Counted from the first letter of the stretch, positions 10,556-45,450 are shown. The stretch is 64,000 nucleotides of DNA from Actinomycetota bacterium (GCA_040754475.1 JBFMCN010000007.1:10296-74295); one strand, 5' to 3'. A program made the numbers and translations. The notes: generated from the letters alone by a model not told the origin.

Positions 10556-10602
10556 TCACAAGGGTTTCGAGCCGGTCGAATCCTGATTGCTGAAGTCGAA
10601 GC

Positions 10603-10890: not shown

Positions 10891-11110
10891 CCAGCCAGAA
10901 CTGGGTCCGCGATGCCGTCGGATGGGCCCTCAGAGGCTCTCGCGGAGTGTGCTGGGGCCGGTCGGCCTAGGGCCGTCGAACAGGCAAGACGGGCCGCAAG
11001 TCGGCCAAAAGGGGCCTCTGACCAGCACTTTTGACTTGCGGGTGGTAAGTCGAGCGTGCTATCTTTGCGGGTGGCTTCGGCCAATTCGCTTCCGATCGCA
11101 GGGGGCTTGT

Positions 11111-11620: not shown

Positions 11621-11668
11621 GAGAAGCCAGGCCATATCACGGCGGGAGCGCCCGAGCCGACGGCGCCG

Positions 11669-19442: not shown

Positions 19443-20166
19443 CCTCGAAGCTCTCCGTGAGCGATCGCCCGCCGCCGGCATCTTCCTAGACTTCGACGGG
19501 TCGCTGTCGCGGATCGTCGACCGTCCGGAGCTGGCCCGTCCGGTAGAGGGCGCTCGTGAAACGCTGATCGCCCTCGTCCCTCGCTTCCGCGTAGTGGCAA
19601 TCGTGTCGGGGCGTCGGACGGAGGAGGTGGCCGGGCTGCTCGGCGTCTCCGGTGTCCAGTACCACGGCTTGTACGGCATGGAGCACACAGCGCCGGCTGT
19701 ACACGCAGCTGCCGTGTCACGAGCCGAGTCGGCGGCCGGGTTGGTGCCCGAGGCCTGGGTCGAGAACAAGGGCCCGTCGCTCGCGGTCCACTACCGTCAA
19801 GCGCCGGATCCGCAGTCGGCCCGGGCCGCGTTGGTGGGGGGGCTCCAGCAGGTCGCCTCCGAGATGGGGTTGGAGATCGTCGAAGGGAAGATGGTCGTTG
19901 AGCTCGTACCGGCTTCCCGGCCCCGCAAGGGGGGGGTGGTCGAGCGCCTGGTCGCGGAACACGGGCTTGCCGCGGCCCTGTTCGCCGGCGACGACGCGGC
20001 CGACATGGAGGGCTTCGCGTCGCTCGACCGGCTCGCTGAGAAGGGGCTCATCACCGTGAGGGTTGCCGTGCGTGGTGACGAGACGCCCGATTCGATGATC
20101 CGTGCCGCCGACATCGTCGTCGACGGGCCCGAGGGATTGGTGGGCCTGCTCCGTCAGATCGCCTGA
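19378..20166 (+). CDS. otsB: trehalose-6-phosphate phosphatase (HAD-IIB)
   Basis: FLDFDGSL motif I, AIVSGRR, GDDAADMEGF motif; T6PP family. The ATG at 19378 overlaps the LytR_C end by 65 nt and the 3' end overlaps otsA by 13 nt. Confidence 0.75.
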   Translation: MSRQKSRSPSTSATTTPPRSNSLEALRERSPAAGIFLDFDGSLSRIVDRPELARPVEGARETLIALVPRFRVVAIVSGRRTEEVAGLLGVSGVQYHGLYGMEHTAPAVHAAAVSRAESAAGLVPEAWVENKGPSLAVHYRQAPDPQSARAALVGGLQQVASEMGLEIVEGKMVVELVPASRPRKGGVVERLVAEHGLAAALFAGDDAADMEGFASLDRLAEKGLITVRVAVRGDETPDSMIRAADIVVDGPEGLVGLLRQIA

Positions 20167-21641
20167 GCGCGCAGTCGACGCTGGCGCACCCGCTCGAGAT
20201 CCTCGAGATGCGCCCGCACCCACCGTTCGGGCGGATTCGAGAGCACCAGTCTCGAGAGGCCGCGTGCCCGCCGAGCCCGCTCCTCATCTGGCATCTCAAG
20301 GGCGTCGCCGAGCGCGTCGGCCATCTCCCCCAAGTCGAAGGGGTTCACCGCCAGGGCGTAGCGCCCGAGGCGCCAGTACGCGCCGGCGTTGCGCGAGAGG
20401 ACGAGCACGCCCTGGCGCCGGTTGAGGAGCGGACCCTCCATCGCGACGAGGTTCATCCCGTCGTAGATCGGGTTGACGAAGAGCACGTCATACAGGCCGT
20501 AGGCGGCGATCGCTCCGAGGTAGTCGTCCTTCACGCGGACGTCGATCGGCTGCCACATGTCCTCGCCCAGTTCCCGGTTGATCCGCTCGGCCTCGGCGAG
20601 GCACTCCTCCGTGTAGGCCTGGTACTCGGGAAGCTCCATCCGCGAGGGCGACAAGAGCGCCAGGAACCGAACGCGGCCGCGCCACGAGGGAACCCGACGA
20701 AGGAGAAGCTCGTAGGCTCGGAAGCCACGCACGATGTTCTTCGTGAGCTCGAGTCTGTCCACTCGGAGTATCAGCCGGTTGTTGCCGCGCCAATGGTTCA
20801 GGTCCCGTCGGAGCGCGCGCACCTCCTCCGTCGATGCCACCTGACGCATCGGTCCCGCCTCGACCGATATCGGATGGATGCGCACCATCACTTCGCGTCC
20901 TTCCGTGCTGATGCGCGCGCGCGCGAGGTCGACCCGCACACCGGACAGAGACCGCGCCGAGGTCAGGAAGTTCTCCGCCCACGCTTGCGAGTGGAAGCCG
21001 AGGACGTCGGCACCGAGCATCCCTCGAAGCACGCCGTCCCGGATCTTGGCCGGCAGGATCCGCAGGTAGGTGGCCCCGGCGATCGCGGTGTGCGAGAAGT
21101 GGGCGATCAATGCGTCCGGTCGAAGCTCTCGCAGGAACCTCGGTACCAGGGACAGGTGGTAGTCCTGGACTAAGTAGACGGGGGGTGAGGTCTGACGATC
21201 ACCCTCCTCCGCGAGCGCACGCGCGAAGGCCCTATTGACCTGCACGTAGTCGGCCCACGCCTGCTCGACGTCCGTGCCGAAGATCGGCGAACGGACCGTG
21301 TCCCAGAGGTAGTGGTGGACGAACCAGAGGATGCCGTTGGAGATCCGGGTGTAGTACCCCTCGTACGTGTCGGGGGGGATGTCGAGATAACGGACGCGAT
21401 ACGCGGAACCGAACGCCTCCATGTCCACGCGGCCTTGGTTGGATCCTTTCACGAGCTCGCGATCGGCCTCCGACATCGCCGCCGCGACCCACAGACCTCG
21501 GGTCTTCTGCAGCGCGCCGATGAGCGCCGTCACGAGCCCGCCGGAGCCGCGTCGCGGGACGAGCTCACCTCGCTCGTCGCGTTCGAAGGTCACCGGCCCC
21601 CGGTTCGACGCCACGACCAGCGGGGCGTCGGATGCGTTCAT
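20154..21641 (-). CDS. otsA: alpha,alpha-trehalose-phosphate synthase (GT20)
   Basis: LVVASNRGPVTFERDE...WVHDYHL-type GT20 architecture, 495 aa. Confidence 0.9.
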   Translation of the reverse strand: MNASDAPLVVASNRGPVTFERDERGELVPRRGSGGLVTALIGALQKTRGLWVAAAMSEADRELVKGSNQGRVDMEAFGSAYRVRYLDIPPDTYEGYYTRISNGILWFVHHYLWDTVRSPIFGTDVEQAWADYVQVNRAFARALAEEGDRQTSPPVYLVQDYHLSLVPRFLRELRPDALIAHFSHTAIAGATYLRILPAKIRDGVLRGMLGADVLGFHSQAWAENFLTSARSLSGVRVDLARARISTEGREVMVRIHPISVEAGPMRQVASTEEVRALRRDLNHWRGNNRLILRVDRLELTKNIVRGFRAYELLLRRVPSWRGRVRFLALLSPSRMELPEYQAYTEECLAEAERINRELGEDMWQPIDVRVKDDYLGAIAAYGLYDVLFVNPIYDGMNLVAMEGPLLNRRQGVLVLSRNAGAYWRLGRYALAVNPFDLGEMADALGDALEMPDEERARRARGLSRLVLSNPPERWVRAHLEDLERVRQRRLRAQAI

Positions 21642-22879
21642 GCCAACTTCGACATGAGGTGGAGGTAGTCCTCGACCTCGCGAGGGGTCAGGAACCGCCG
21701 GCGGACGCGCTCCCTGCCTGCGGCACCGAGCCGCTCGCGGAGATCCGCGTCGCGCAGGAGCTCAACGATCCGCCGAGCGCAAGTCTCCACGGAGTCCACC
21801 AGGTACCCGCTGCGGCCGTCCTCGATCTGCAGTCTGATCCCGCCGACGTTGCCGCCGACCACCGGCTTTCGCTTCCACATGCCTTCGGCGACGACGAGCC
21901 CGAAACCCTCGCGGATCGATTTCTGCACGATCGCCTCAGCGGCGCGCTGGAAGGCGTTGATCTCCAGGTTCCCGACCTGCTGGAGGTTGGTGAGCAGATG
22001 GATATCGGGATCGCCGCGCCGGTGCTCCTCGGTGAGGTCGAGGTAACGCATGCCTTCAGGGTCGTCGCTGGCGAGCGACCCGGCCATGATGAGCTGAAGG
22101 CCGGGAACCACGTGACGGGCGAGGCGGTAGGCGTCGATTACCCCGAGGGGGTCCTTCCACGGGTCGAAGCGCGAGACCTGGGCGATGATCGGGCGGTCGG
22201 GGTCGATGCCGTATCCGGATAGGACACCACGGACGGCTTCGTCCGGCACCGGGGAGTTCTTAGGAGAAAGCGGGTCGATCGAAGGGGGGATGAACGCGAG
22301 GACGGGCCGCCCAAGGCCCGGTCGTGCGTACTCCTCCATCGTGAAGATCGCAGCGTCGAAACGGTCCACGAGCGGCTCGAAGAACTCCCACACGGGCTCG
22401 AATGGGGTCGACAGGTCGATGTGACAGCGCCACAGCCAGCGGCCGAAACGACGCCCCTCGTCCTCGATCACCGACAGGATCGCCGCCGGCTGGGGATCGT
22501 GGATGAAGACGAAATCGAATCGTTCCGTAAGTCGGCTGGCGTTCGTGCGGATGCGGTCCCAGTAGATTTCACGCATCCGGCCGGACCATGGGATCTCGGC
22601 CCCCTGCAGCGCGTTGTGGACGCTCTTGGTCACGTGGAAGTACTCGTCCGACCCCTCGACGACGGCCCACGCGACGTCCAGCCCGAGATCGTCCATCAGC
22701 GGGAGCTGCGTGTGCAGCAACTCGGCAACCCCGCCCCCGAAAGCCGTGCTGTTCACGTGCAGCACACGGGCTCCGGCCAGCGGATCCGCCGCCTTGCGAA
22801 GCCGTTCGACGGCTTCCGGCCCGGCGGCCTCCGTGTAGTCGTCGACCCGCTTGTCGCCGAGGGGGACGATCGGAAGCAT
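21638..22879 (-). CDS. treT: trehalose glycosyltransferring synthase TreT (GT4)
   Basis: Near-colinear with archaeal and Rubrobacter TreT (HVNSTAFGGGVAELLH...WLWRCHIDLS...PPSIDPLSPKN...QVSRFDPWKDP...MSIREGFGLVVAEGMWKRKPVVGGNVGGI). Its stop overlaps the otsA start. Confidence 0.85.
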   Translation of the reverse strand: MLPIVPLGDKRVDDYTEAAGPEAVERLRKAADPLAGARVLHVNSTAFGGGVAELLHTQLPLMDDLGLDVAWAVVEGSDEYFHVTKSVHNALQGAEIPWSGRMREIYWDRIRTNASRLTERFDFVFIHDPQPAAILSVIEDEGRRFGRWLWRCHIDLSTPFEPVWEFFEPLVDRFDAAIFTMEEYARPGLGRPVLAFIPPSIDPLSPKNSPVPDEAVRGVLSGYGIDPDRPIIAQVSRFDPWKDPLGVIDAYRLARHVVPGLQLIMAGSLASDDPEGMRYLDLTEEHRRGDPDIHLLTNLQQVGNLEINAFQRAAEAIVQKSIREGFGLVVAEGMWKRKPVVGGNVGGIRLQIEDGRSGYLVDSVETCARRIVELLRDADLRERLGAAGRERVRRRFLTPREVEDYLHLMSKLA

Positions 22880-22919
22880 GGGGGGAGTCTACTGCCCGAG
22901 CCAGTCTCTCCCGAGAGGG

Positions 22920-23813
22920 CTACCGCGTGAGGATGGCCTCGATCGCCTCCGCGAAGCCCTCTCCGTGAGTGCCGCTGGTGAGGTACACGTTGTCGGGCAC
23001 GGCCGTCCCCACGACGGAGTCGGCCCCGTTGGCCACGAGGAAGAACGCGGCCACCTGCTGGGAGACTTGCAGATCGGCGGGCGAGTCGCCGATGGCAATC
23101 GCCGAACCGACGGGTATGGCGTGGCGCTCGCGGTGGAGCGACACGGCAGAGGCCTTGTCCACGCCCTTGGGGAGCAGGTGGAGGGCGTGCGCTTCGTCGA
23201 CGTCCAGGTTGGGCAACCGACGCCGCATCTTGCCGTTGTCGTGGAGTTCCAGCCAGCGATAGCCAGCGGCTCGGAGTGCCTCGTTCGCCTCTGAGGGCTC
23301 GACCCATCCCTGGAACATCAGCATGGCCTCGGCCCACGACGCCATGGGTTCGATACGCCGGGGAAACCGCTCGAGCAGGAAGGCTCCCGCCCCCGATCGT
23401 GCGATGGCCGAGGCGGGGCTGTCCTCTCCTTCGAACGGCCCGAAGTTGCTGATCAGGGTCTCCTTGTGGCTATGGCGCTCGACGATCAACGCTCCCAGCT
23501 CGGCGATGAAGGCACTTGCACCCAGCAGCCGAGCCACCTCGGCCAATCCTCGTCTGGTTCGACCCGACATGATGACCAGCGGAACCTCAGCCTCGTGGAG
23601 AGCCCGAATCGCATCCGCAGCTCGGAGGGAGACCCGATCTCCCGAGGCCGCGAAGAGCGAGCCGCCCGGGCCCAGCATGGTGCCGTCCAGGTCGGCGTAT
23701 ACCACCCTGAGGTCGTGTATGTCCGGCCGTTCCGCGGAGAGACGTCTCACCCGTTCACCTGCGTTGACACTCCCATACCCCGACCCTACATTGGCCTGGA
23801 GGGAGGCCACCAT
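22920..23813 (-). CDS. HAD-IIB (Cof/sucrose-phosphatase-like) sugar-phosphate phosphatase, first gene of the treT-otsA operon
   Basis: YADLDGTML motif I, LVIMSGR, and a C-terminal GDSPADL motif. The real start is probably downstream of 23813, which collides with the rrf2 start. Confidence 0.7.
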   Translation of the reverse strand: MVASLQANVGSGYGSVNAGERVRRLSAERPDIHDLRVVYADLDGTMLGPGGSLFAASGDRVSLRAADAIRALHEAEVPLVIMSGRTRRGLAEVARLLGASAFIAELGALIVERHSHKETLISNFGPFEGEDSPASAIARSGAGAFLLERFPRRIEPMASWAEAMLMFQGWVEPSEANEALRAAGYRWLELHDNGKMRRRLPNLDVDEAHALHLLPKGVDKASAVSLHRERHAIPVGSAIAIGDSPADLQVSQQVAAFFLVANGADSVVGTAVPDNVYLTSGTHGEGFAEAIEAILTR

Positions 23814-24502: not shown

Positions 24503-26914
24503 ATGAGGCCTGAAGACTCTGAGCCGGCGCGCCCGGCCACCTGGAGCGAGCCCATCATCCACCTCGAGGAAGTCGAGGCTGAGGGGACCACGCGGTCGGG
24601 AGCGGTCCGATCCTTGTCGTCTACCGATCCGGCGGAGCGAGCGGGAGCTCTGGCCGACCTCGTCCGGTGGGGGCTCACCGCACGTGACGTCGAGGCGGTC
24701 TCAGAGCTGCTCCTCGACCCAGTCGTGAGGCTGCGGCGGCAGGCCGCCGAGGCGCTCGCTGGACGCGCCGATGACGTCGACCTGGCGAGGTTGGAGGCGG
24801 CGCTCGACGACCCGGCGGACGAGGTTAGGGCGACCGCCGTCAGTCTGGCCGCGTCTCGACGCGCGCCGGAGCTGGCGAGCCTGTTTCCGCTCGTCGCGAC
24901 GCGTCGGTGGCGGCTTGCTCAGGAGCGGGTCCTGGACGTGCTTCCGGGTCTCGTGCACCGAGCAGGTCTATCGGAGGTGGAGCTCACGTCGCTGCTGCAG
25001 TCGGTCGCGAGGCTGCCCTCACCGCCGCGCGCGTCCGAGCGGGAGCGTCTGGCGGAACTGGCACGGGCGGTCGGCCGAGATCGGCTCGTGCAGGCGCTGT
25101 CCTTCTCGGACAGCCGGAGGCTCGGGGCCGTCCGGCTCCTCGCCGCGGAGGGCCGGCTGGCTTCGCTCCGCGCGATCGCCGGTCTTGGGTCGGATCCACT
25201 CGACGATGTCCGGATCGAAGCAAGCATGGCACGCGAGCGTCTGGAAGAGGCTGCTCGGCACCCGAGCGCAGGAGCAAGACCGCCGGAGAAGCTCGATCTG
25301 GTTGCGATCGAGCGCGGGACCGACTCGGAGGCGGTCGGGTTCCTGGTCGGCGCCCTGCTGGATCCGGACCGCGAGGTGCGTGATCGTGCCTGGGGCGCGC
25401 TCACCTTGGTGGACTGGGACGCCGTCTTGGGCTGGGTCCGGGAGGCGCTACGGATCGGCTCGGACGAAGATGCCGCGCTGGCCGCCCACGTGGCCGAACG
25501 GCTGATGCTGTCGCAGGTCGCCGTCGCGATCATGGAGCGTGGAGCGCGGGTCCCTCAGGAGGGGCGGGGGCCATTCGAGAGCGCGCTGACGTCGTTCGGC
25601 CTTGAGCCGCCGGCGCTGGCGGCGGCCGTGCTGGAGACGGACGAACGCTGGCGCGCCGCAGCCGTGAGGATCGCCTGGATGGCGGGAGGTCGTGCCGTCG
25701 TGCCCCACCTGGCCCGGTTCCTCGAGGATCCCGCCGGGCCCGTCCGGAGGGCGACGCTCGAAGTGATGGACGACGCGGGAGATCCGGCCGCGCGGCGGAT
25801 CGCGCTCGAGTCCCTCGTGACGGACCCATCCTCCGCCGTGAGGCTGGCCGCCGTGAAGGTCCTCGCAACGGCGCCGTGGGACTTCCGTGCGACGGCGCTT
25901 GAACGAGCGGTGCGCGACCCCGACCCCGACGTGCGCGTTTCGGCGGCACGGATTCTCCCTCACGAGTTGCCGGACGAGGGGTTCCTTCGCCTGCTTCCGG
26001 CCCTGGAGGACGGGGACGAGCGTGTCTGGCGAGAGGCCGTCCGGCACCTGGCGGCGCTCGACAGGGACCCGAGCGCCGTCTGGCAGGGTCTGGCGCTCTC
26101 TCCGGAGAGCAGGCGCGGTCCGATGATCGAAGCTCTCGCCGAGACGGGAGCGGAGCGCCTGGAGCAACTGGCGCTCCTTGGCCTTCGGTCGCCCAGCGCG
26201 AAGACCCGTGCCCTGGCCGTCGAGCTCGCTGCCATAGGCGCAACGCCGGCGTGCCTCCAGGGCACGATCGACGCTCTGGACGATCCCGATGCGTCGGTTC
26301 GCCGAGCTGCCGCTCGCGGACTCGCCGAGCTCGGCCACGCAGCCTCTGTGCCGGCGCTCTCGGAAGTGCTGTCCGATCCGGACCGCAGCGTTCGGCTGGA
26401 GGCCGTTCGCGCGCTGGCGGGGATCGACGACCACACGGCGATACCGTCTCTCGCCACGGCTGCCCTCGATCCCGAGCCGGATGTCCGGGAGGCCGCCGTG
26501 CGGGCCCTCGGCTCGATGCGGATGGGAGGGGCCAGCGCCGATCTCGTCATCGATCGCGTGCTCGAGCTCGGCTCGGAGGCGGCACCGCGGGGAGGATGGC
26601 TGCTGCAGCGGATCGTTGGGTTCGAGTCGTTCCTGGAGCGGTTGGGCTCGCTCGAACCGGCGGAGCGACTTCGAGCGGTGGTCTCCCTGGCGACGATCGG
26701 CGGTCCGCGCGCCGTGGATGCGCTGATCGGGTCCCTGGGTGACCCCGACCGGAGCGTGCGCCTAGGCGTCCTTCGCGCCCTTGGAGAACTGGGCGACCGG
26801 CGCGCACGCGACGCGGTCGAACGAACCGCGCACTCCGATCCGGTCCCGGAGGTGGCGGCCGCCGCCAGGGAGATACTGCGTGAACTGCCTGAACCTGGAG
26901 ACATGCCCGAGTAG
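24503..26914 (+). CDS. large HEAT-repeat (PBS-lyase-type) protein, 803 aa
   Basis: More than 15 tandem repeats of the type LDDPDASVRRAAARGLAELG / LSDPDRSVRLEAVRALAGI. Confidence 0.75.
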   Translation: MRPEDSEPARPATWSEPIIHLEEVEAEGTTRSGAVRSLSSTDPAERAGALADLVRWGLTARDVEAVSELLLDPVVRLRRQAAEALAGRADDVDLARLEAALDDPADEVRATAVSLAASRRAPELASLFPLVATRRWRLAQERVLDVLPGLVHRAGLSEVELTSLLQSVARLPSPPRASERERLAELARAVGRDRLVQALSFSDSRRLGAVRLLAAEGRLASLRAIAGLGSDPLDDVRIEASMARERLEEAARHPSAGARPPEKLDLVAIERGTDSEAVGFLVGALLDPDREVRDRAWGALTLVDWDAVLGWVREALRIGSDEDAALAAHVAERLMLSQVAVAIMERGARVPQEGRGPFESALTSFGLEPPALAAAVLETDERWRAAAVRIAWMAGGRAVVPHLARFLEDPAGPVRRATLEVMDDAGDPAARRIALESLVTDPSSAVRLAAVKVLATAPWDFRATALERAVRDPDPDVRVSAARILPHELPDEGFLRLLPALEDGDERVWREAVRHLAALDRDPSAVWQGLALSPESRRGPMIEALAETGAERLEQLALLGLRSPSAKTRALAVELAAIGATPACLQGTIDALDDPDASVRRAAARGLAELGHAASVPALSEVLSDPDRSVRLEAVRALAGIDDHTAIPSLATAALDPEPDVREAAVRALGSMRMGGASADLVIDRVLELGSEAAPRGGWLLQRIVGFESFLERLGSLEPAERLRAVVSLATIGGPRAVDALIGSLGDPDRSVRLGVLRALGELGDRRARDAVERTAHSDPVPEVAAAAREILRELPEPGDMPE

Positions 26915-27595
26915 GTGGCGGCGATTCGCCGCGGCTCCTATGCTCCATGTCGTCTTCTGGTCATGCCCGAGCCGGAGGCCCGGCCTGGGCGCGTTCCCAA
27001 GGGGGGGAGGCCGGCGTCCGTCGAGATCATCGTCGGAGGGGCCGCAGTAGCCCTTGTAGCCGCGGTTGCGGTGCTGCTCTGGCGTCGCGAGCTGCGAAGG
27101 GCGCGAGTGATCCCCATGTCCGCGCCTGATGCCGAGGACCAGGGGTGGTCGTTCGGTCCGCGCGGTGGTGACAGATCCGCGATCGAAGAAGTGCCGCATG
27201 AAGCCGACGCGGCAGGCTTGCCCCCTGACTCGTCGGACGCTCCGCCGCCGGGGCCGGAGGCGGAAGCGACGCACGCAGAAGGGGTGTCCGACGCCGGCAC
27301 GGAAGGGTCCCGGCCGGGGGGAGGGCCCGCGTTTCCGGCCGACTCGGCCTCTGACATGGTCCTGCTGGAGCTGCTCGACGACGAGCGGCCCTCGGTGCGA
27401 CGTAACGCCGTTATCGCGCTCGCGGTAGGGCGTGGGGCACACGCGCTCCGGGGGCTTTCCTACGCCGCTTCGCAAGATCCCTCGGTAGAGGTGCGCCGGG
27501 AGGCCATCCTCGGCCTCGGCTCGCTCATGGGGAAGCGGTCCGAGTCTGTGGAGAGCCCTCAGACGCAGGGAGTTGGGCCCACCGACGACGCATGA
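26915..27595 (+). CDS. membrane-anchored protein with acidic Pro-rich linker and C-terminal HEAT-like repeats
   Basis: Starts immediately after the large HEAT gene stop. TM segment VEIIVGGAAVALVAAVAVLLW, then LDDERPSVRRNAVIALAVG...DPSVEVRREAILGLG. Confidence 0.5.
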   Translation: MAAIRRGSYAPCRLLVMPEPEARPGRVPKGGRPASVEIIVGGAAVALVAAVAVLLWRRELRRARVIPMSAPDAEDQGWSFGPRGGDRSAIEEVPHEADAAGLPPDSSDAPPPGPEAEATHAEGVSDAGTEGSRPGGGPAFPADSASDMVLLELLDDERPSVRRNAVIALAVGRGAHALRGLSYAASQDPSVEVRREAILGLGSLMGKRSESVESPQTQGVGPTDDA

Positions 27596-27952: not shown

Positions 27953-27979
27953 TTAGCACTCCGAGCTTGTGAGTGCTAG
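27953..27979. promoter_or_regulatory. CIRCE element (HrcA operator)
   Basis: TTAGCACTC-cgagcttgt-GAGTGCTAG is a near-perfect match to the consensus TTAGCACTC-N9-GAGTGCTAA. It lies 60 nt upstream of the groEL ATG. Confidence 0.85.
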
Positions 27980-27999: not shown

Positions 28000-29658
<1,659 letters not shown>

Positions 29659-30847: not shown

Positions 30848-32149
30848 TTACCGGCCCGGCGCGACGCCGACGATCCGTCGCGCGTATGCGAAGTGGTCGC
30901 GATACCAGCCGTCGGCCACGTTCAGGATCGTGACGCCGCCGAGGCTGCTCGAGGAATCGATCGCCCAACCGCCCCCGATGTAGACGTCGACGTGGTCGAC
31001 GGTCCCGTCGCTGTTGCCGTCGTAGAACATCAGGTCGCCCGCTCGGAGGTTCTTGAAGCTCACCTTGCGCCCGGTGGAGGCCATGTCGGACGATGATCGC
31101 TGCGGAAGCGACCATCCCGTGTACTCGCGCGGCGGGACGTTGTCCCACCCACTCTCAGCTGCCTTCATCACCCACCAGGTGGCGCCAGAGCAGTCGAAAC
31201 CGCCGACGGGCTGGTCGCCGCAGCAGTAGCCGTCTGGAGAAGCCTCGTACCACTCACCGCCGTACACGTACGGATAGCCGACGTAGTCGATCGCGAACTG
31301 AACGATCTGCTGCTTCTGCGGCCCGAGATTGGGGAGTGTGATGGTGGCGTACCCGACGAGCTCGTCGAGCATCCATGAGGGCATCGTTGCGGCTCGGTAC
31401 AGAGACCACGCGACCTCTGCGCGTGGCAGGGACGAGTCGGGTCCTACGTCCAGCGACTCGTCCGAATGGTTGTAGCGGAGACCGATCCGCATACCGATCA
31501 GGAGCGTGCCGAAGTCCTGAGGCACCGAGAACGTGGTCCCGTTCCGCGTGTGGACGGCATCGAGGCCGCTCGCCGGGTCGCCGAGACCTACGGCCAGCAC
31601 AAGGGCCCTGTGAGCGGACCTGGTCGTCACGGTCTCGTTGGGTTGGAAGCTGCCGTCGGAACCCGTCGTCATCCATCCCAGCTTCACGGCGATGTTCGCG
31701 TATTCGTAGGAGGGGTCAGTCGGGGGCAGGTCGGGAAACGCGATGGCTGGATCGGTTGGCTCATCGGAAGCGAAGGCGCGAACCACCGAGCGGGCAAACA
31801 GGGCGCGAGTCTCGAGATCGTCGGGTCGGAACGGGTACTTGCCGTCCTCGTTCGGAGGATCGTCGCGCATCCAGTCGTTGGTTGCCCCCACGTAGTCGAT
31901 CGCGGCGCGGGCCCAGTGTCGCTTCGGCACGTCTGACCACTTGATTCCGTTGGCTCCCTTCCGCGGGGCACGGACAGCCAGCGCCGGCATCCCGGCGTCC
32001 CGATCCCCCGTACGTAGCCACGTCGCGTCGGGGGCCGCGTGCGCTCCTGCCGGTACGGGCTGGATGAGCGTCGTGCACGAGAGGGCAGCGAGCACGGCGA
32101 ACAGACGCCGCTGGGGCCACGACGATGTCATACAGGCGTCCTCGGTCAT
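30848..32149 (-). CDS. secreted SLH-domain / NlpC-P60 (C40) cell-wall hydrolase
   Basis: Signal peptide, two SLH-like segments (WSDVPKRHWARAAIDYVG; FPDLPPTDPSYEYANIAVKLGW) and a C-terminal C40 domain (GFDCSGATWWV...H...). The likely real start is the Met at 32131. Confidence 0.75.
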   Translation of the reverse strand: MTEDACMTSSWPQRRLFAVLAALSCTTLIQPVPAGAHAAPDATWLRTGDRDAGMPALAVRAPRKGANGIKWSDVPKRHWARAAIDYVGATNDWMRDDPPNEDGKYPFRPDDLETRALFARSVVRAFASDEPTDPAIAFPDLPPTDPSYEYANIAVKLGWMTTGSDGSFQPNETVTTRSAHRALVLAVGLGDPASGLDAVHTRNGTTFSVPQDFGTLLIGMRIGLRYNHSDESLDVGPDSSLPRAEVAWSLYRAATMPSWMLDELVGYATITLPNLGPQKQQIVQFAIDYVGYPYVYGGEWYEASPDGYCCGDQPVGGFDCSGATWWVMKAAESGWDNVPPREYTGWSLPQRSSSDMASTGRKVSFKNLRAGDLMFYDGNSDGTVDHVDVYIGGGWAIDSSSSLGGVTILNVADGWYRDHFAYARRIVGVAPGR

Positions 32150-32320
32150 GGCGCGCCAAGACTTGAGTCGGCCTTCTGGGGTTCAGATGAGACCCCTTTC
32201 GTCCGATGGAAACGTAGGGAATCTGGCCGACAGGTCTCGCCGACCCGATACGATCGGCGGCGTGACGGCCAAGCAGGCTTCGAGAGTCCTCGAAGTGGAT
32301 CGGGGGATCCGGAGGCGTTG

Positions 32321-32515
32321 ATGTTTGCCTGGGCGTACTTGGACGGCACCGGGGAAGAGGTCGGCCGCTCGCAGCGGTTCGCCGACACCGAGGCGGCGGA
32401 GGAATGGATGGGAGCCTGCTGGCGGGACCTCTACGAAAACGGCGTCGAGGAGGTCGCGCTCCACGACCACATGCGCAACCGCCGCCTGTACAGGATGGGC
32501 CTCGGGGCCGAGTGA
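32321..32515 (+). CDS. hypothetical 64-aa protein
   Basis: ATG preceded by GGAGG 7 nt upstream. MFAWAYLDGTGEEVGRSQRFADTEAAEEWMGACWRDLYENGVEEVALHDHMRNRRLYRMGLGAE. Confidence 0.35.
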   Translation: MFAWAYLDGTGEEVGRSQRFADTEAAEEWMGACWRDLYENGVEEVALHDHMRNRRLYRMGLGAE

Positions 32516-32539
32516 GGATCGGCCGGGCCTGCGGGATCG

Positions 32540-33661
32540 TCAGGCGGTGTCTGCCTCTCGGTCCCCCTCCGCCCGCCACCTGGCCTGCAGGCGCTTCATC
32601 AGTTCCGGCATCGTGGTGTACTCGAGCTCGTCCAGACCGATCCGGTGTGGCTCGAATGGACCCATCCGCCGCATGTAGTCGGCGGTTCGGAGCGCGATCT
32701 GCCGGGCGCGGTCGAAGCCCAGATCGGCGAACATGTCTCGGGGGCCGTTGAGCCTCCCGTCCTTCACCTGGAAGCCGAGCGCGACGATTCGCGGCGGCCC
32801 GTCGAATCGGGACGGCGTGGCGTCCTCGATGCTCGTCGGCATGAGCGGCCCGAAGTGCGAACCGCGCATCCATCCTGCCACCAGATGTGGGAATGCGAAG
32901 GGCTCGAGCACCTCGCCGACGGCAGGTAGGCCGCTCTGACACCGGACGATGAGCACGGGGTCGTCCTTACCCACGTACCGCCCGGCCATGAGGGACAGAC
33001 GCTGGGTGGACGTGGCGGCCGCCACGATCCCGTCGCTTCGGGAGCGAACGCGCCTGATCACGAAGCTGTGGGGAGCACCGACCAGCATCAGCAAGTCGTA
33101 GTAGTCCTCGGGCGTTCGCAGATCGACCGCTTGGTCCTCCTTGAGGTCGAGGACCTCGAACTCGAACCCGGAGTGCAACTTGGGGTCGATCACGAGACCG
33201 ATGGAGGAGAACGGGTCGGCGAACATCCTGGACAGGGGGAGGTTGAAGGCGCCGGGCTCGGTCTTGTCCGCCAGGAACACGAGGACTGGTTCGCTCGGCC
33301 GCTCGACGAAGGTCATCTCCGCGTAGCCCGGCCCCATGCCTCGCAGGTTGCCGCTGAAGGCGTCGGTCAGGAGGTCCTGCCCGGCTCCGTACATCCCGAG
33401 CCTCGTAGCCACCTCGGTGGTCGCCTTGAAGACGTCCCAGGCAAACCCGTGGACGCGCTCGCTGTTGGCGCCGTGCTGGTGCGTCAGGATGAGAGCGAGG
33501 TCGTCTCCGACACGGTTCACCTGTCCGTCGATCACGAGGCCCGCATCCACGGCCTCACGTACTCGCTCCCTCGCCACTTGAACCATCTCGGGGTGGACCT
33601 CGGTGTGACCCACGAAACCGCCGGTATCGGCCTTGATAACGGACAGCGTGACCTCCATCAC
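32540..33661 (-). CDS. fbp: bifunctional fructose-1,6-bisphosphate aldolase/phosphatase (class V FBPase)
   Basis: Colinear with archaeal FBP aldolase/phosphatase: VTLSVIKADTGG, HVGDDL, GQDLLTDAFSGNLRGMGPG, KTEPGAFNLP, YVGKDDPV, PHLVAGWMRGSHFGPLMP, FDGPPR. Confidence 0.9.
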   Translation of the reverse strand: MMEVTLSVIKADTGGFVGHTEVHPEMVQVARERVREAVDAGLVIDGQVNRVGDDLALILTHQHGANSERVHGFAWDVFKATTEVATRLGMYGAGQDLLTDAFSGNLRGMGPGYAEMTFVERPSEPVLVFLADKTEPGAFNLPLSRMFADPFSSIGLVIDPKLHSGFEFEVLDLKEDQAVDLRTPEDYYDLLMLVGAPHSFVIRRVRSRSDGIVAAATSTQRLSLMAGRYVGKDDPVLIVRCQSGLPAVGEVLEPFAFPHLVAGWMRGSHFGPLMPTSIEDATPSRFDGPPRIVALGFQVKDGRLNGPRDMFADLGFDRARQIALRTADYMRRMGPFEPHRIGLDELEYTTMPELMKRLQARWRAEGDREADTA

Positions 33662-33813
33662 TCCTCCTTGAGTCGCACGACTCCAGGCTGGCGCTGTTCG
33701 CCCGCGTCAGTCAGGGTCGAGGGGTCCGGGACCGGCGGGACGGTCGGCCGTCCCCGCGGGGCCGTTGGGACCGCCCCGCGGGACGGCAGCGCTGGGTCAG
33801 GTGACTGCACCGC

Positions 33814-33957
33814 TCAGGGCAGGTAGGAGGGGGGATCTTCCGCGAAGTCCTCCATGCACCCCTCGGAGCAGAAGTAGTACGTCGTCCCCTCGTGCTCGTG
33901 TTTCCACTCGGCGGTTGCCGGGTCCACCTCCATGCCGCAAACGGGATCGATCTCCAC
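33814..33957 (-). CDS. YHS/TRASH-domain metal-binding small protein
   Basis: DPVCGMEVDPATAEWKHEHEGTTYYFCSEGC is the YHS pattern. GTG at 33957 with GAGGAGG 8 nt upstream. The track ORF extends further 5'. Confidence 0.6.
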   Translation of the reverse strand: MEIDPVCGMEVDPATAEWKHEHEGTTYYFCSEGCMEDFAEDPPSYLP

Positions 33958-34070
33958 GGCAGGAACCTCCTCAAGTTGGCTGGGGGAACACCCGAAGGAT
34001 ACGCTCGAGACAGGGCTGCGAAGGCCGCAGACCGGTCGGTCGTTGCCGCGGCGAGTGGCGGGAGCCTCGG

Positions 34071-34736
34071 ATGATGGAGCAGCGGACGTCTTCGGGTGGC
34101 CTCGCACCCGCGCTCGCGATCCTCGGAGGCGTGCTGGTCATGGCTGGATCGGTCCTGGACTGGGCGACGGCTTCGGCCGGAGGGTTCAGCACGTCGGCCA
34201 AGGGGATCAACGGTTGGGAAGGGAAGGTCACGATCGTCTGTGGGATCTCCATGGTCATCGCGGGCGTTTCTTCCTTCGTCGGCGCGACCGGAGGCAAGAA
34301 CCGGCTGCGGGTGTCTGCGCTGGTAGGAGGGGCGGGGGCGGCCGCGATCAGCATCTACAGCGCGATGAGCGCCGAGGATCAGGTGATCGACGGAGTTGCC
34401 ACAGAGCTGGCCAAGCAGCAGGCCGTCGCAGTCGAAATCGCCCGTGCGGCGGTCCAGGAAGCGATCGACCGGGGGCAGTTCGCGGTCTCGCTCGAGATAG
34501 GGATCTACTTGGTGATCGTCGGCGGGATCATCGGGATCGTCGCGGCGATCCTTGCGATGATGTCCCGCTCGGCCGCCCCACGTGCGCCGGCTCCCGCCGC
34601 GGGACTGACCGGCTGGTCCGCACCCGCCGCTCCGTACATACGTCCGCCCATGCCCTCCGACCAGGAATCCGCGAGCGAGAAATCCATCGGCGACGGGTTC
34701 TCAGAGGGTAGACTGCCCCCACCACCACCCAACTAG
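34071..34736 (+). CDS. hypothetical integral membrane protein
   Basis: ATG at 34071 (MMEQRTSSGGLAPALAILGGVLVMAG...) with multiple hydrophobic helices and a Pro-rich C-terminus. The upstream part of track ORF 33765..34736 was rejected. Confidence 0.55.
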   Translation: MMEQRTSSGGLAPALAILGGVLVMAGSVLDWATASAGGFSTSAKGINGWEGKVTIVCGISMVIAGVSSFVGATGGKNRLRVSALVGGAGAAAISIYSAMSAEDQVIDGVATELAKQQAVAVEIARAAVQEAIDRGQFAVSLEIGIYLVIVGGIIGIVAAILAMMSRSAAPRAPAPAAGLTGWSAPAAPYIRPPMPSDQESASEKSIGDGFSEGRLPPPPPN

Positions 34737-34738: not shown

Positions 34739-35143
34739 ATGCGTACGACAGAGATCCAGATCGAGACCGAGGGTCGGCGAGTGGTCGACATCACTCCGCT
34801 TGTGCGCCGTTTCGTCGCGGAAGGAAACGAGAGCGGGATCTTGAACATCTTCCTGCCGCACGCAACCGCCGGCCTCGGGCTGATGGAGACGGGATCGGGC
34901 TCCGAAGAGGATCTTGAGGAGCTGATGGAGCGGCTGATGCCGCGCGACGACAGGTACGTGCATCGCCTGGGCTCGCGCGGGCACGGCGGTGACCACCTGC
35001 TCCCGGTGCTCGCAGCCCCGTCTCTCGTTCTGCCCGTGGAGGACGGGGAGCTGGCGATCGGCACGTGGCAGAGTGTTGTCGTCGTGGATCCGAACCTCGA
35101 GAACAATCGTCGCCGCGTCAAGATGTTGATGCTGCCAGGCTGA
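34739..35143 (+). CDS. yjbQ: YjbQ-family (UPF0047) secondary thiamine-phosphate synthase-like protein
   Basis: ITPLV...GILNIFLPHATAGLGLMETGSGSEEDL...GHGGDHL...GTWQSVVVVD matches YjbQ. Starts 3 nt after the preceding stop. Confidence 0.8.
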   Translation: MRTTEIQIETEGRRVVDITPLVRRFVAEGNESGILNIFLPHATAGLGLMETGSGSEEDLEELMERLMPRDDRYVHRLGSRGHGGDHLLPVLAAPSLVLPVEDGELAIGTWQSVVVVDPNLENNRRRVKMLMLPG

Positions 35144-35155: not shown

Positions 35156-35515
35156 CTAGAGGTACTGGCCGGGGGCGAGTTCCCTGCCGTCCATGCGCGA
35201 CGCGACGGCCTGAACGTCGCGTTCACGGAGCAGCAGGTACTCCTCGCCGTTCAGCTCGACCTCGAGCCCCGCTTGGGGCAGGAACAGGATGCGGTCGCCC
35301 ACCTTCGTGGCCCGAACGTCGGGGCCCACGAGCGCAACCTGCCCCCACGTGCATCGCTTAGGAGCGGGCGCGGCCGTGGCCGGGATCAGCAGACCTCCGC
35401 GCGACTTGCGCTCGCCGTGGTCGGGGTGCTGGACGACGATGCGGTCTCCCGTGAGACGAATCTCCTCGTTGCGCTTGCGGCGAGCGCTCGGCGACGTGGT
35501 GGCAGAACGAGGCAT
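35156..35515 (-). CDS. GroES-like (Cpn10-family) protein with N- and C-terminal extensions
   Basis: IRLTGDRIVVQ...ERKSRGGLLIPATAA...GQVALVGPDV..KVGDRILF...EVELNGEEYLLLRERDVQAV aligns along the whole GroES beta-barrel. No CIRCE upstream. Confidence 0.6.
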   Translation of the reverse strand: MPRSATTSPSARRKRNEEIRLTGDRIVVQHPDHGERKSRGGLLIPATAAPAPKRCTWGQVALVGPDVRATKVGDRILFLPQAGLEVELNGEEYLLLRERDVQAVASRMDGRELAPGQYL

Positions 35516-39572: not shown

Positions 39573-40979
39573 GTGCGACGGGGTGCCGAGCCTCGCGAGC
39601 CCGCCGTCGCGGTGGTCCTCGCCGTTGTGGTCCTGGCGGTCGCGGCGTTCAGGCCGTTCCCGCAGGTCCCCACCGATCTCCGGCCGAACATCGTAGTGAT
39701 CCTGTCGGACGACCAGTCATTCGACTCCCTGCCTCACGACCCGCCGGTGATGCCACGGCTGCAGGCGACGATCGACGATCACAACGGCCACTGGGTCTCC
39801 TTTCCGAACGCGTTCGTGAGCACGCCGCTCTGCTGCCCTTCGCGCGCGACGATCCTCACCGGCCGGTACTCGCACAACACGGGCGTGCAGACGAACGACC
39901 TGGCCGACCTTCTCGACGATGGCTCGACCGTGGCCACCTGGCTGCAGGGCGCCGGCTACTACACCGGCCTGTTCGGCAAGTACCTGAACGGCTATCCGTT
40001 CGGGTACTCGACCTTCGTGCCCCCGGGATGGGACAGGTGGCTGGGGCGGCTACAGGCGGGCCAGTCGTCGCTTTACTACAACTACGTCCTTGTCGATCAA
40101 GGATTCCCTGTAGCCCACGGGAGCGCCCCCTCCGATTACTCGACCGACGTCCACGCCGCGGCCGCCGCGGACTTCATCCGAACCGCTCCCGCGGACCGAC
40201 CGTTCTTTCTGGCGGTGACCCCGTCCGGGCCGCACCGCCCGTGGACTCCCGCGCCGCGGGACACCGGTGCGTACGCCGACATGGCGATAGCAGCGCCGGG
40301 GAGCATCGGTGAGGGCGACGTGTCGGACAAGCCGGCGTGGGTGCGGGCGCTGCGCCCGATGTCCCGCGAGCGTCTCCAGCAGCTCGACGGGATCCACAGG
40401 CGGTCGTTCGAGACGCTCCGATCCGTCGACCGGCTCGTGGCGGGCGTGGTGAAGGCGCTGCGTAGGCGCGGAGCGCTCGACCGAACGATCATCTTCTTCC
40501 TCACCGACAACGGCTTCTCCTTCGGCGCGCACAGGTGGACGAGCAAGGGCTGCCCTTACGAAGAGTGCGTCCGTACGCCGTTCTTCGTGCGGGTGCCCGG
40601 GGCTGTTGCCCGCGTGGACGGGCACTTGATCTCGAACGTGGATCTGGCGCCCACGTTCGCCGAGCTGGCCGGGAGTGCCCCGGCCTCTCCCGTGGACGGT
40701 CGGAGCCTGGTGCCGCTCCTGGAGGGCTCCACCGTGCCCGATTGGCCCGACGGCGTGCTCCTTGAGTACGTGGGCGACGCTCACATTCCGCCGTGGCGGG
40801 CGATCCGCACGGAGGAGTTCGCCTACGTGGAGTACGCGACGGGCGAGCGCGAGCTCTACGACCTCACCGGGCGCCTGGGCTCCCCGGATCCCTACGAGCT
40901 GGAGAACAGGGTCTCCGATCCCGCCTACGCGGGGCTCCGAGCCGATCTCGCGGCACGGCTAGAACGCCTCGCCGGCTGA
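39573..40979 (+). CDS. Cys-type sulfatase (formylglycine-dependent)
   Basis: [10 protein letters not shown], sulfatase signature [13 protein letters not shown] (C-x-P-x-R), and an N-terminal signal/TM segment. Confidence 0.85.
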
Positions 40980-40998
40980 ACAGGCTCTCCCCGACGCG

Positions 40999-42621
40999 GT
41001 GCCTGGGCGTGCTGCTACTGTCTGCGCCGTGCAGTACACGCCCGGTCCCGGCTCTCGCCTCCCGGTGCCGCGCTCGCGCCGCCTCCTTGCACGGCGCCGA
41101 GCCGCCCGGCGCAAGGGCTTCCTAGTGGTCCTCGCGGCCCTGTGCCTGTTCATCGGGTGGAGAGCCTGGCCGAAGGGGGGAGGTACGGAGAGCGCGGGTG
41201 GGAGCCCAACCCCCGGGGGAACAGGCGGGACCGGTGCCACGTCCACCCCGAGCTCAAGCAGCGAGCCCGGCGCCTCCCCGATCGAGCACGTCGTCTTCAT
41301 CGTCAAGGAGAACCGAACCTTCAACAACTACTTCGCGACCTACCCGGGAGCCGAGGGGACGACCGAGGGCGGAACGATCGAGTGCACCGAGAACGGCTGC
41401 GAGGACGGACCGGTCGTGCAGCTCGAGCATGCGGAGGATACCCAGCCGCACGACCTGACCCACTGCTTCCGGTGCGGCCTCGTCGCGATCAACGACGGGA
41501 GGATGAACGGCTTCAACTGGATGAACGGAGTCATCCCGACCACTGCGGAGAAGGCCCTTCTCTACGGCCACGACTTGAGCGGATACGTGTATCACGACCG
41601 CGACACGCTGCCGAGCTACTGGGCCTATGCGGATCGGTTCGTGCTCGCCGACCAGTTCTTCACGTCCATGTACGGGCCCACCCTCCCGGAGCACCTGTAC
41701 GCGGTGGCGGCTCAGGCGAACGACATCGTCGACAACAAGAGCACAACAGACCACCCGAACAGCTATTGCGATGATCCCACCGAGAGCGCGACCCGGTTCG
41801 AGCAGCATCTCTCTGCGGGAGAGGTCCGCCTGATCATGCAGCTGGAGGAGGAGATCGCACGGAACGGGTCGAATACCTGGGATCTGGCGAAGTACTGGGA
41901 CAGCGTCCGATTGTGCTTCGACATCAAGGTGCTGCCCGACCAGCTCGAGGAGGCCGGGATCTCCTGGAAGTACTACGCGAACGAGAACTCGTGGATGAAC
42001 GCCCTCCAGATGATCAGGCACGTTCGCTACAGCTCGATGTGGAGCAAGGTGCGCCCCCCCGAGGAGTTCGTCCAGGACGTTCGCGACGGAGAGATGGCCC
42101 AGGTCTCCTGGATCATCCCCTCTGAGTCCTACAACGAGCACCCGGGTGGCGAGAAGAGCGTGTGCGCCGGCGAGAACTGGACCGTGCACCAGGTCAACAC
42201 GATCATGAAGAGCGAGTACTGGGAATCGACCGTGATCGTGGTCGTGTGGGACGACTTCGGTGGGTTCTACGATCCGGTCGTCCCGCCGCACTACGACATC
42301 ATGGGGCTCGGTCCCCGCACCCCCGCCCTCATCATCTCGCCGTACACGAGGCAGGGAGACAACCCCAACGGCGGTTATGTGGACCACACCGTGTACGAGT
42401 TCTCCTCGGTCCTCGCGTTCATCGAGCAGATCTTCGAGTTGGAGCCGATGACCGAACGGGACGCGGACGCAAGTCCGCTGGCCGGCGCGTTCGATTTCGA
42501 GCATCCGAACTTCGAGAAGCTCGTCCTGCCGCTCCGTCAGGACTGCCCCTACGGGACGTCGTTCGCGCACTTCCGGGCGAGCTGGCCCTACCTGCGGACG
42601 ATCGGCTCACAGAAGGACTGA
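40999..42621 (+). CDS. phosphoesterase-family protein (phospholipase C / AcpA acid phosphatase family), membrane-anchored
   Basis: [26 protein letters not shown]-terminal motif and C-terminal [11 protein letters not shown]. Confidence 0.85.
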
Positions 42622-42659
42622 ACGTCCGCGGGCGCCCGCTGCGCGGCGGCACGGCCCCG

Positions 42660-44021
42660 TCAATCGTCGGGGAACTTGGGGCCCTGGCAGTCGGTCCGAA
42701 GCGGCAAGGGGTCGGGCTCTCGCGGCTCCTGTGTGAAGTCGAAGGCCGAGATCAGCGGGGTGGCGTCCCTGTCGCGGTGCGTTAGCTGCGAGAGGCCCCA
42801 GTTGTCCTCCATGAACCTGAGCACGCTGGAGAACTCGCCGAGCTCGCCGGTCACGTACCCGCGCTTCGCGTAGGGGCTGATGATCAGCAGCGGAACGCGG
42901 ATCCCGAAACCGAAGTTGTCCACCTGCGGTGGGGGAACGTGATCGTAGAAGCCCCCGTAGTCGTCCCATGTGATGAAGATCGCGGTGTTCTTCCACAGGG
43001 GGCTGTTCATGATTGCGTTCACGATCTCGGTGGTCCAGTTCTCTCCGTGGCAGAAGCTGTACTCCGGGTGGTCGGAGAGCTCGAAGCGCGGTGTGACCCA
43101 GGTGACCGGCGCCAGGATCCCGGCCTCGACGTGCTCGACGAAGTCGTCCACCGGAAACACATGGCTCTGCCAGACCTTGGGGTTCTCGCGGATGTGGCGA
43201 ACCGCGTCGTAGGCGGACCAAAGGTATCCGTTCTGCATGTTGGTCGCCGAGTAGTAGGTCCACGGGATTCCGGCCTCGGTTAGCAGGTCCCCCTCGGTCA
43301 GGAAGTCGAAGCACGGCGGCACCTTCTTCACCACTCCCTCCCGGTCCTCCACCTCGATGTAGGCTTCCTCGATCGAGTCGCACCCCCAGGCCTTGAACAA
43401 CCCCGTGGAGCGGTGACGTTCTCGGAGCAGGTCTAGGTTCTGGGTCGGGTTGTCGTGCGTGCCCCCCGACTGTGCCGCGATGGTGTACAGGTGGTTGGGG
43501 AACGATGGCCCCTGGGCGCTCGCGAAGAAGTTGTCGCCGAGCACGAACTCCTCCGCCCAGTGCCAGTAGTTCGGGAGGTCCTGGGGGAGGTACTGCGTGT
43601 ACGCGTACAGGTCGGCCGACTCGCCGACCGCTGCGAACCCGTCCATCTTCCCCTCGTTGTAGGCCTGGAGCGCGCACTCGTAGCAGTGCTTGATGTCCTC
43701 AGGGAGTCGATCCGGGCTCCGGGTCAGTGGGCGAACCTGCCCCTGGTCGAGCCCGGTCGTCACGCCGTCGGCGCCCGGGAACCGGCCGTACATGTTGTCG
43801 AAGGTGCGGTTCTCCTTGATGACGAACACGATGTGCTTGATCGGCCAGCGCGTGTGGATCGCCGCGGCGTTCACGCGGGTGGGGCGTTTGCCCAGAGAGG
43901 CCGGCGGCACAGGGTTCCAGCTCGCCATCTCGTTCGAGCACGCGACGGTGATCAGCACGAGGGCCAGCAGGGTTCCGGCGGTCCGCACGAACGCACGAGC
44001 GTTCCGGGGCATCCGGAGCAC
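42660..44021 (-). CDS. phosphoesterase-family protein (phospholipase C / AcpA family), paralog
   Basis: KHIVFVIKENRTFDNMYGRFPGADG, ITWDDYGGFYDH; N-terminal signal/lipobox VACS. Convergent with the 40999..42621 paralog. Confidence 0.85.
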   Translation of the reverse strand: MLRMPRNARAFVRTAGTLLALVLITVACSNEMASWNPVPPASLGKRPTRVNAAAIHTRWPIKHIVFVIKENRTFDNMYGRFPGADGVTTGLDQGQVRPLTRSPDRLPEDIKHCYECALQAYNEGKMDGFAAVGESADLYAYTQYLPQDLPNYWHWAEEFVLGDNFFASAQGPSFPNHLYTIAAQSGGTHDNPTQNLDLLRERHRSTGLFKAWGCDSIEEAYIEVEDREGVVKKVPPCFDFLTEGDLLTEAGIPWTYYSATNMQNGYLWSAYDAVRHIRENPKVWQSHVFPVDDFVEHVEAGILAPVTWVTPRFELSDHPEYSFCHGENWTTEIVNAIMNSPLWKNTAIFITWDDYGGFYDHVPPPQVDNFGFGIRVPLLIISPYAKRGYVTGELGEFSSVLRFMEDNWGLSQLTHRDRDATPLISAFDFTQEPREPDPLPLRTDCQGPKFPDD

Positions 44022-44031: not shown

Positions 44032-45450
44032 TCAGGCAGGCTGCAGCTCGCGGCGGTTCTTGCGGACGTACTTGCGCCAGTGCTCCTGCCCCTCTTGGGG
44101 GAGGGTGTAGACGGGGTCGTAGTAGGCGTACTCGCGCTCGAGGGCGCCGGGATCGTCGTGCTCGATGCCGGTGCGATAGTTCTTCCGCCAATACGAGATG
44201 CCGAGGATGCGGTCGTAGCGACTGACCATGTGCACCCAGCGCTTGCCGACCAATGGGACGTCGCACGCGACGCGCGGCGTGGCGAACCCTGGCAGATACC
44301 CCATGATGGCGAACTGCAGCTCCTGCGCCTCGGCGATCGAGGTCCGCCAGTGCTCGGCGTTCGGGATCATGTCGCACTGGTAGAAGTAGTACGGGATCAC
44401 CTTGGCGTGGTCGATGAGCATGAAGCACAGCTCGAGGAGCTGCTCGGGCGTCGTGTTCACTCCTCGAAGCAGCACTCCCTGGTTCCGGACGTCCCGGTAG
44501 CCCATGTTGAGGAACGTCCGGACGGCTCTCGCGACCAGCGGCGTTACCTGTTGCGCGTTGTTGATGTGCGTGTGGATCGCGATCTCGACGTCCCTCTCGC
44601 GCGCCCGCTTCACGATCCGCTCATAGCCCCGCAGGACCTCTTCCTGCAGGAAGTGCTGTGGGATACCCATCAGTCCCTTCGTGGCCAGGCGCACGTCGCG
44701 GATGTTCGGTAGGTCGATGAGCTTCGTGAGGAAGGCCTCGAGACGGGCGATCGGTATGTTCGCGATGTCGCCGCCGGAGACCACGACGTCCCGGACAGAC
44801 GGCGTCCGGCGCAGGTAGTCGAGCATCGCGTCCCACCGCTCGTTCTGCTTCAGCTCGAACTTGTACTTGAGGACCTGTGTCGTGTCGTTCCCGACGAGGT
44901 CCATGCGCGTGCAGTGGCCGCAGTACTGCGGGCACGTCGGGATCATCTCCGCGAGCACCTTGGTCGGGTAGCGGTGGGTGAGCCCCTCGACCGCCCACAT
45001 GTCGGCCTCGTGGAGGCTGTCGCGCCTGGCCATCGGGTGGCTGGTCCACTCGGGGTGGCGGTCGGAGAAGGCCGGAGCCATGTAGCGGCGGACGGGGTCG
45101 TTCCGCAGATCCTGCTCGTTCATCGTGTTGACCATCTGGGGCGGGATGAGCATCGACATCGTCGCCCGCTCCCGCTGGTCTCGTTCGATGTCGGAGTACA
45201 GCTCGTCGTCGAGATGATCCCCGAGGGCGCGCTTCAGCTCGACGAGGTTCTTCACCGTGTGGGCGCGCTGCCACTGCGCGCTCTCCCACTGCTCCTTCGC
45301 CACGTCGGTGAAGCCGGGGAGGCGCGTCCAGTCGGACTCGACGAACTCCCTTCGGAGCGGGTATTCGAAGGGCTGCTGCGCCGCGCGGACATTGCCGGTG
45401 TCGCGCTTTGGGCGCTGGGCCGCTCTGCCCGTGCCCTGCCGCTCGCTCAA
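44032..45450 (-). CDS. kamA: KamA-family radical-SAM aminomutase (lysine 2,3-aminomutase-like)
   Basis: [11 protein letters not shown]...[10 protein letters not shown] (CxxxCxxC), [37 protein letters not shown]; colinear with clostridial KamA. Confidence 0.85.

Follow-up and report, generated by a model that had tools for sequence, protein, structure and literature searches.

A predicted FBP aldolase/phosphatase gene and its YHS-domain neighbour in an actinobacterial chromosome

The first known members of the FBP aldolase/phosphatase family came from archaea and deep-branching thermophilic bacteria (PMC3267732). A gene of this family in actinobacterial DNA, located next to a gene for a YHS/TRASH mini-protein, therefore raises the question of whether it marks a thermophilic host or a transfer from archaea, and whether the two neighbouring genes work together. 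We addressed this question for a stretch of 64,000 nucleotides from an Actinomycetota bacterium (GCA_040754475.1 JBFMCN010000007.1:10296-74295), hereafter called the window. Judging from sequence comparisons, we consider it quite probable that the gene, fbp, encodes an FBP aldolase/phosphatase in an ordinary Actinomycetota chromosome, that it belongs to a bacterial branch of the family, and that the YHS gene is part of a different unit, the adjacency of the two being positional. Both genes are already annotated, and the fbp family is known and common in the phylum. The importance of the locus beyond correct annotation is little; a variable slot in a conserved gene block and a weak proximity of fbp to chaperonin genes are mildly interesting by-products.

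The fbp gene and its genomic context

The coordinates of the relevant features are collected in Table 1. The fbp reading frame was found where the first-pass annotation had placed it, and its identification as FBP aldolase/phosphatase is backed by two protein profiles. Its product matches PF01950 (FBPase_3) with 574.7 bits (E 1e-172; cutoff 25 bits) over profile positions 2-360 of 361, and the NCBIfam equivalog NF041126 (FBP_aldo_phos) with 559.6 bits, which exceeds the equivalog cutoff of 520 bits. The longest open reading frame (32540..33661, minus strand) begins with GTG and comprises 373 aa, the in-frame GTG at 33661 adding one residue. Because the gap from the end of the Shine-Dalgarno motif GGAGG is 4 nt to the ATG at 33658 and 1 nt to this GTG, the ATG is the likelier start, as in the NCBI record. 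The exact fbp protein is public as MEW6058674.1 and the exact YHS protein, with the same start, as the neighbouring MEW6058675.1, both on a contig of 74,424 bp that bears the label Actinomycetota bacterium.

The actinobacterial context assumed in the first-pass annotation is borne out by this contig label and by the gene order at window positions 550-14667, which reads folP, a hydrolase gene, a DUF2520/Rossmann gene, panC, lysS, clpC, carD, a PIN-domain gene, ispD, a SpoU methylase gene and tRNA-Thr. We take the order folP..panC..lysS..clpC..carD..ispD..SpoU to be that of Rv3608c-Rv3579c in Mycobacterium tuberculosis. The interval between lysS and clpC is the position of lsr2 in Mycobacterium, an expected actinobacterial marker; in the window, Lsr2 is absent between these two genes, and a receiver-domain (response-regulator) gene is located there on the opposite strand (7239-7670). 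When the window was searched with Rfam at gathering thresholds, the tRNA-Thr was the sole match, and neither a riboswitch nor any further RNA turned up close to fbp. In the same region, the longest panC frame (3455-4942, plus strand) carries the pantoate-ligase domain at residues 215-490 only and overlaps, in another frame, the DUF2520/Rossmann-like frame (3084-4100, plus strand), for which reasons panC translation probably begins near 4100.

Table 1. Features of the window around fbp and elsewhere, with the basis of each assignment (positions counted from the first letter of the window).
Feature	Position	Strand	Basis or remark
CIRCE element (TTAGCACTC-N9-GAGTGCTAg)	27953-27979	+	1 mismatch, 0 expected by chance
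groEL	28039-29658		Looks groEL2-type
NlpC/P60 + SLH cell-wall hydrolase, block member	30848..32149	-	PF00877, PF00395
64-aa protein (MFAWAYLDG...YRMGLGAE), far slot edge	32321..32515	+	Conservation; convergent with fbp
fbp, bifunctional FBP aldolase/phosphatase	32540..33658	-	PF01950 and NF041126 matches; 372 aa from ATG
YHS-fbp spacer, ~152-155 nt	33659..33813	-	Poorly conserved
Long G+C-rich hairpin	33747..33787	-	MFE fold, stem ~19 pairs, ~26 nt past YHS stop
YHS/TRASH mini-protein, 47 aa	33814..33957	-	PF04945, GTG start
Predicted multi-pass membrane protein, 221 aa, Pro-rich tail	34071..34736	+	Divergent from YHS, 113-nt gap
YjbQ/UPF0047 protein, block member	34739..35143	+	PF01894, TIGR00149; present in L166-L174
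Stand-alone divergent Cpn10-family gene, 119 aa, N-terminal extension	35156-35515	-	Member of the YjbQ/PrmC block
Transketolase	46475-48343		Pfam scan

A variable slot next to the YHS gene

The reading of the fbp neighbour as a 47-aa YHS/TRASH protein with a GTG start preceded by a Shine-Dalgarno sequence holds: the product matches PF04945 with 61.8 bits (cutoff 30.3 bits), and the GTG lies 8 nt 3' of GAGGAGG. Its cysteine triad (C7-X22-C30-X3-C34) is invariant in 30 homologues, and the 47-aa family, with 67-89% identity among its members, occurs on many Actinomycetota contigs. With this C-X22-C-X3-C triad and an IDPVCGM motif, the protein resembles the stand-alone YHS/TRASH mini-proteins (PF04945), relatives of the YHS domains found at the N terminus of copper P-type ATPases. 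A scan of ~50 window reading frames gave 0 matches to P-type ATPases or other recognised metal-transport families, and the name “Cu+-exporting ATPase” given to 47-aa proteins by JGI reflects the shared domain only.

The YHS gene is a member of a conserved block with the order PrmC-like methyltransferase, Cpn10-like protein, YjbQ, membrane protein of ~200 aa, YHS (divergent), 64-aa protein (convergent), NlpC/P60 hydrolase and NAD-synthase-like protein. Ten further loci with this block (L166-L175) were found via YHS homologues that are 67-85% identical. Homologues of the membrane protein, for which the single Pfam signal is a sub-threshold match to Trp_oprn_chp, are divergent from YHS in L084 and L166-L175 (33-52% identity), and the NlpC/P60 hydrolase is 57-67% identical to its block counterpart in the relatives. 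The 64-aa protein has no Pfam match and aligns end to end with small reading frames of L084, L085, L166, L170 and L174. The Cpn10-like protein shares just 35-39% identity with groES products of other loci.

A comparison of the window with L084, L085 and L166-L175 revealed a variable slot in the interval from YHS to the 64-aa gene (window positions 32321-33957). This slot is empty (1-20 nt) in L166-L173, holds an Rv1265-like gene alone in L174 and L175, fbp alone in the window, and fbp together with an Rv1265-like gene in L084. With respect to the block proteins, relatives with and without fbp are equally far from the window (57-75%). Regarding the NAD-synthase-like protein, that of L166, which lacks fbp, is 77-80% identical to those of the fbp-bearing L084 and L085, and that of the window 69-70%. 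Because L166 groups with fbp-bearing loci in this protein, there is a slight indication that loss of fbp from the slot is somewhat more parsimonious than repeated gain, and the absence of fbp in relatives would reflect loss and not gain.

Conversely, an ancestor shared by the window, L084 and L085 might have acquired fbp at the slot through intra-phylum transfer or translocation, rather than fbp being ancestral and then lost in L166-L175. We regard this history as rather unlikely, though it deserves consideration ahead of every other alternative discussed below. It would be in line with the differing slot content among relatives, with the labels from outside Actinobacteria that occur within the fbp clade, and with fbp copies at 80-85% identity in unrelated contexts, namely beside FeoAB in L083 (85%) and beside a baeRF_family10 gene in L081 (80%). 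However, given the grouping of L166, which is based on one or two short proteins, a gain would need two insertions at the same site, as opposed to a single gain followed by loss.

Whichever way fbp entered or left the slot, its position there, between YHS and the conserved 64-aa gene, leads us to regard the adjacency of YHS and fbp as positional or incidental and not functional. Where a conserved block contains a variable slot, two genes can come to be neighbours in a single genome for that reason alone. YHS would belong to a separate conserved unit in which it is paired divergently with the membrane-protein gene, and this gene is the better candidate for a local partner, if there is any.

The first-pass annotation had suggested that the YHS protein may supply or sense metal for the Mg-dependent enzyme, which would make the two genes a functional pair. 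They are indeed adjacent on the same strand, each with its own Shine-Dalgarno sequence, and the arrangement is seen again in one relative, L084, where fbp is 84% identical. This, however, was the only one of 165 fbp loci (80 from species-representative genomes, 80 from metagenomes and five from close relatives) in which phmmer in six frames detected YHS nearby; in L085 (fbp 82% identical), for instance, the neighbour is a PLDc_N gene. Moreover, in the 10 loci L166-L175, YHS is kept at this place in the chromosome and fbp is missing, with the divergent membrane-protein gene as the constant neighbour of YHS. The chemistry also argues against the proposal: the invariant candidate ligands of YHS are the three cysteines, and thiolates are ligands for soft metals, Cu or Zn for example, and not for Mg2+. 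A delivery or sensing role for the enzyme is accordingly very improbable.

The DNA between the two genes was considered as well. YHS and fbp are co-directional, a consensus scan of 32300-34300 found neither a sigma-70-like promoter nor a T-tract terminator, and the lack of a canonical terminator in the interval would suit a functional pair; co-transcription by read-through is possible. On the other side, the 152-nt spacer is weakly conserved: in an alignment with L084, the sole further YHS-fbp locus, conservation is confined to the coding flanks, and the spacer contains a 28-nt indel. The long hairpin within it may be a tail-less terminator; the spacer as a whole does not fold significantly more stably than shuffled sequences (z = -1.3). 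Overall, we favour the view that YHS and fbp would be transcribed separately.

Relatives of fbp and growth temperature

In order to place fbp among its relatives, we scanned species-representative genomes, which gave at least 593 confirmed relatives, and examined the best 80 of these. Of these best 80, 77 are bacterial and three archaeal, and 16 belong to Actinomycetota, with Lentzea, Amycolatopsis, Saccharopolyspora, Solirubrobacteraceae, Geothermincola and Solincola represented; the first three are genera of mesophilic soil bacteria. The protein database adds fbp in Allokutzneria, Carbonactinospora and Acidimicrobiia. The nearest relatives (80-85% identity) are metagenomic proteins, one of them labelled as an Actinomycetota MAG, and the nearest ~60 are bacterial at 70-85% identity.

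The phylogeny was calculated by neighbour-joining from 231 sequences and 364 columns using Kimura distances and 100 bootstraps; as its sampling was restricted to sequences resembling the query, three of them archaeal, it supports coarse statements only. In this tree, the window fbp falls within a bacterial clade of 64 sequences (bootstrap 94); the few of these that carry a name come from Actinomycetota MAGs, two Dormibacterota and one Hyphomicrobiales MAG. This clade has as its sister an Actinomycetota clade comprising Pseudonocardiaceae, Solirubrobacteraceae, Acidimicrobiia and Carbonactinospora (joint bootstrap 88). Geothermincola and Solincola, among others, make up a second actinobacterial group at a different place in the tree, and the archaeal sequences are well separated from the window fbp. 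The phylogeny that had been proposed for separating vertical from horizontal origin hence yields a mixed answer: the branch is bacterial and largely actinobacterial, but inheritance is not purely vertical, because Dormibacterota and Hyphomicrobiales labels occur inside the clade and the second actinobacterial clade lies elsewhere.

These results suggest that fbp is a long-resident bacterial gene with some transfer between bacterial lineages, and not a recent import from archaea. Horizontal acquisition, which the first-pass annotation had considered, could be defended on the grounds that the family was originally described in archaea and deep-branching thermophilic bacteria and that the presence of fbp varies at this locus among relatives. 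But a recent acquisition from archaea or an unrelated thermophile appears extremely unlikely in view of the well-supported bacterial clade and the remote position of the archaeal sequences. The composition of the gene likewise shows no anomaly: its GC (0.67) and GC3 (0.84) are as in neighbouring coding frames, the G+C content of the window is uniform (0.65-0.71), and among the window reading frames no mobile-element genes flank fbp. “Archaeal-type” is a historical label for a family whose range in bacteria goes well beyond that first description.

The presence of fbp alone is no indicator of growth temperature, because mesophilic actinomycetes carry the gene too. In Actinomycetota and the phyla next to it, mesophilic members included, FBP aldolase/phosphatase is common and long established; it thus serves as a marker neither of thermophily nor of archaeal transfer. 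The thermophilic lifestyle that had been read from fbp thus loses this support, but it is plausible on other grounds. Using the published linear relation between IVYWREL content and growth temperature, 40 window proteins (IVYWREL 0.431) point to ~69 °C and a cruder set of reading frames (0.418) to 57 °C, while the same procedure gave 30-42 °C for the loci of Lentzea and Saccharopolyspora; the estimator is noisy on small loci, as L054, recorded as Nitrospira japonica and provisionally regarded as a mesophile, came out at 68 °C. The 40 proteins contain 9.5% Arg and 7.4% Glu, with low Asn and Gln, and their charged-minus-polar value of ~10-11, like their IVYWREL fraction, is above that of likewise treated loci from mesophilic high-G+C actinomycetes. 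In addition, the syntenic relative L085 (GroEL 92%, fbp 82% identical) stems from IMG metagenome 3300010938, an assembly of a Chocolate Pots hot-spring core sampled at ~41-51 °C. Because of the IVYWREL composition and this hot-spring relative, a moderately thermophilic lineage is plausible, the two observations being suggestive only.

Predicted activity, chaperonin genes and further observations

The window protein closely resembles the archaeal enzymes ST0318 of Sulfurisphaera tokodaii (PDB 3r1m, 1umg) and FBPAP of Thermoproteus neutrophilus (PDB 3t2b), with which it shares length and architecture. It is 57% identical to ST0318 (3r1m) over 367 aa with 0 gaps (E 4.5e-144), and the comparison with the T. 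neutrophilus enzyme (3t2b) gave an E value of 8.6e-141. In contrast to these archaeal proteins, it is encoded by a high-G+C Actinomycetota MAG and belongs to a bacterial subclade together with Pseudonocardiaceae, Acidimicrobiia and Dormibacterota.

The 231 aligned family members agree to at least 99% in 86 columns, and in each of these (86/86) the consensus residue is found in the window protein. These near-invariant residues include the lysine of YVGKDD as well as D12, H19, D53, D54, Q95, D132, K133, D233 and D234 (numbered from the GTG), each at least 99.5% conserved. We take the YVGKDD lysine to be the Schiff-base lysine and the conserved acidic residues to be those that bind Mg2+. Y347 of the 372-aa protein starting at the ATG (ELEYTT) aligns with Tyr347 of ST0318 in a column that is invariant in the 231 sequences. 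This tyrosine was reported to be essential for both the aldolase and the phosphatase activity of ST0318, with the Y347T variant being inactive (PMC8740755). By homology, the window protein is predicted to catalyse the conversion of DHAP and GAP to FBP and further to F6P and Pi, and such an enzyme would render upper gluconeogenesis one-way.

Membership in PF01950 alone is no proof of this function, because activity on FBP has been lost in CinF of Coxiella burnetii (Cbu0513), a family member with ~39% identity to ST0318 (PMC8740755). While CinF provides a precedent for such divergence inside the family, it is scarcely conceivable that the window protein has been neofunctionalised in the same way and no longer acts on FBP, since it is far nearer to the canonical enzymes, as seen from its ungapped alignment and higher identity to ST0318, its score above the equivalog cutoff and the complete set of near-invariant residues.

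Among the ~50 window reading frames compared with Pfam, no class I/II/III FBPase and no class I/II aldolase was found. A trehalose cluster at 19378-23813 comprises an otsB-like phosphatase gene, a gene for a GT20 trehalose-6-phosphate synthase (otsA), a gene for a TreT-type trehalose synthase and one for a HAD/S6PP-like phosphatase; the products of these genes are possible sinks for gluconeogenic hexose phosphate.

The window fbp is located between two chaperonin genes, groEL (3 kb away) and the Cpn10-like gene of the block (1.5 kb away). The CIRCE element lies 60 nt upstream of groEL and would control it, and the groEL2-type reading follows from the fact that no groES adjoins this gene; upstream of fbp, the CIRCE search found no such element. 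In another actinobacteria-like clade (L014, L094, L097 and L099), fbp follows immediately downstream of groEL in the same orientation, ~117-146 nt away. There, a CIRCE-like inverted repeat is followed by groES-groEL-fbp in L014, L097 and L099, while the sequence of L094 begins inside groEL, the groES/CIRCE region lying outside the locus. Altogether, about three independent cases of fbp lying near chaperonin genes can be counted, compared with roughly one expected by chance. From this weak association, a tie of the bifunctional enzyme to the heat-shock system in these Actinomycetota appears doubtful; if fbp were indeed co-induced by heat, this would suit its proposed role in clearing heat-labile triose phosphates.

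Further genes of the window deserve mention as observations in their own right. A cluster spanning 39573-44021 consists of a sulfatase gene (39573-40979) and, beside it, two convergent PF04185 phosphoesterase genes (40999-42621, plus strand, and 42660-44021, minus strand), after which follows a reading frame of 472 aa (44032-45450, minus strand) with no Pfam match. The window also contains moaA. Upstream of the CIRCE element, the plus strand of 24503-27595 encodes an 803-aa protein of unusual size, consisting mostly of HEAT repeats, and then a HEAT-repeat frame of 226 aa; this region holds several overlapping frames of high GC3 on both strands.
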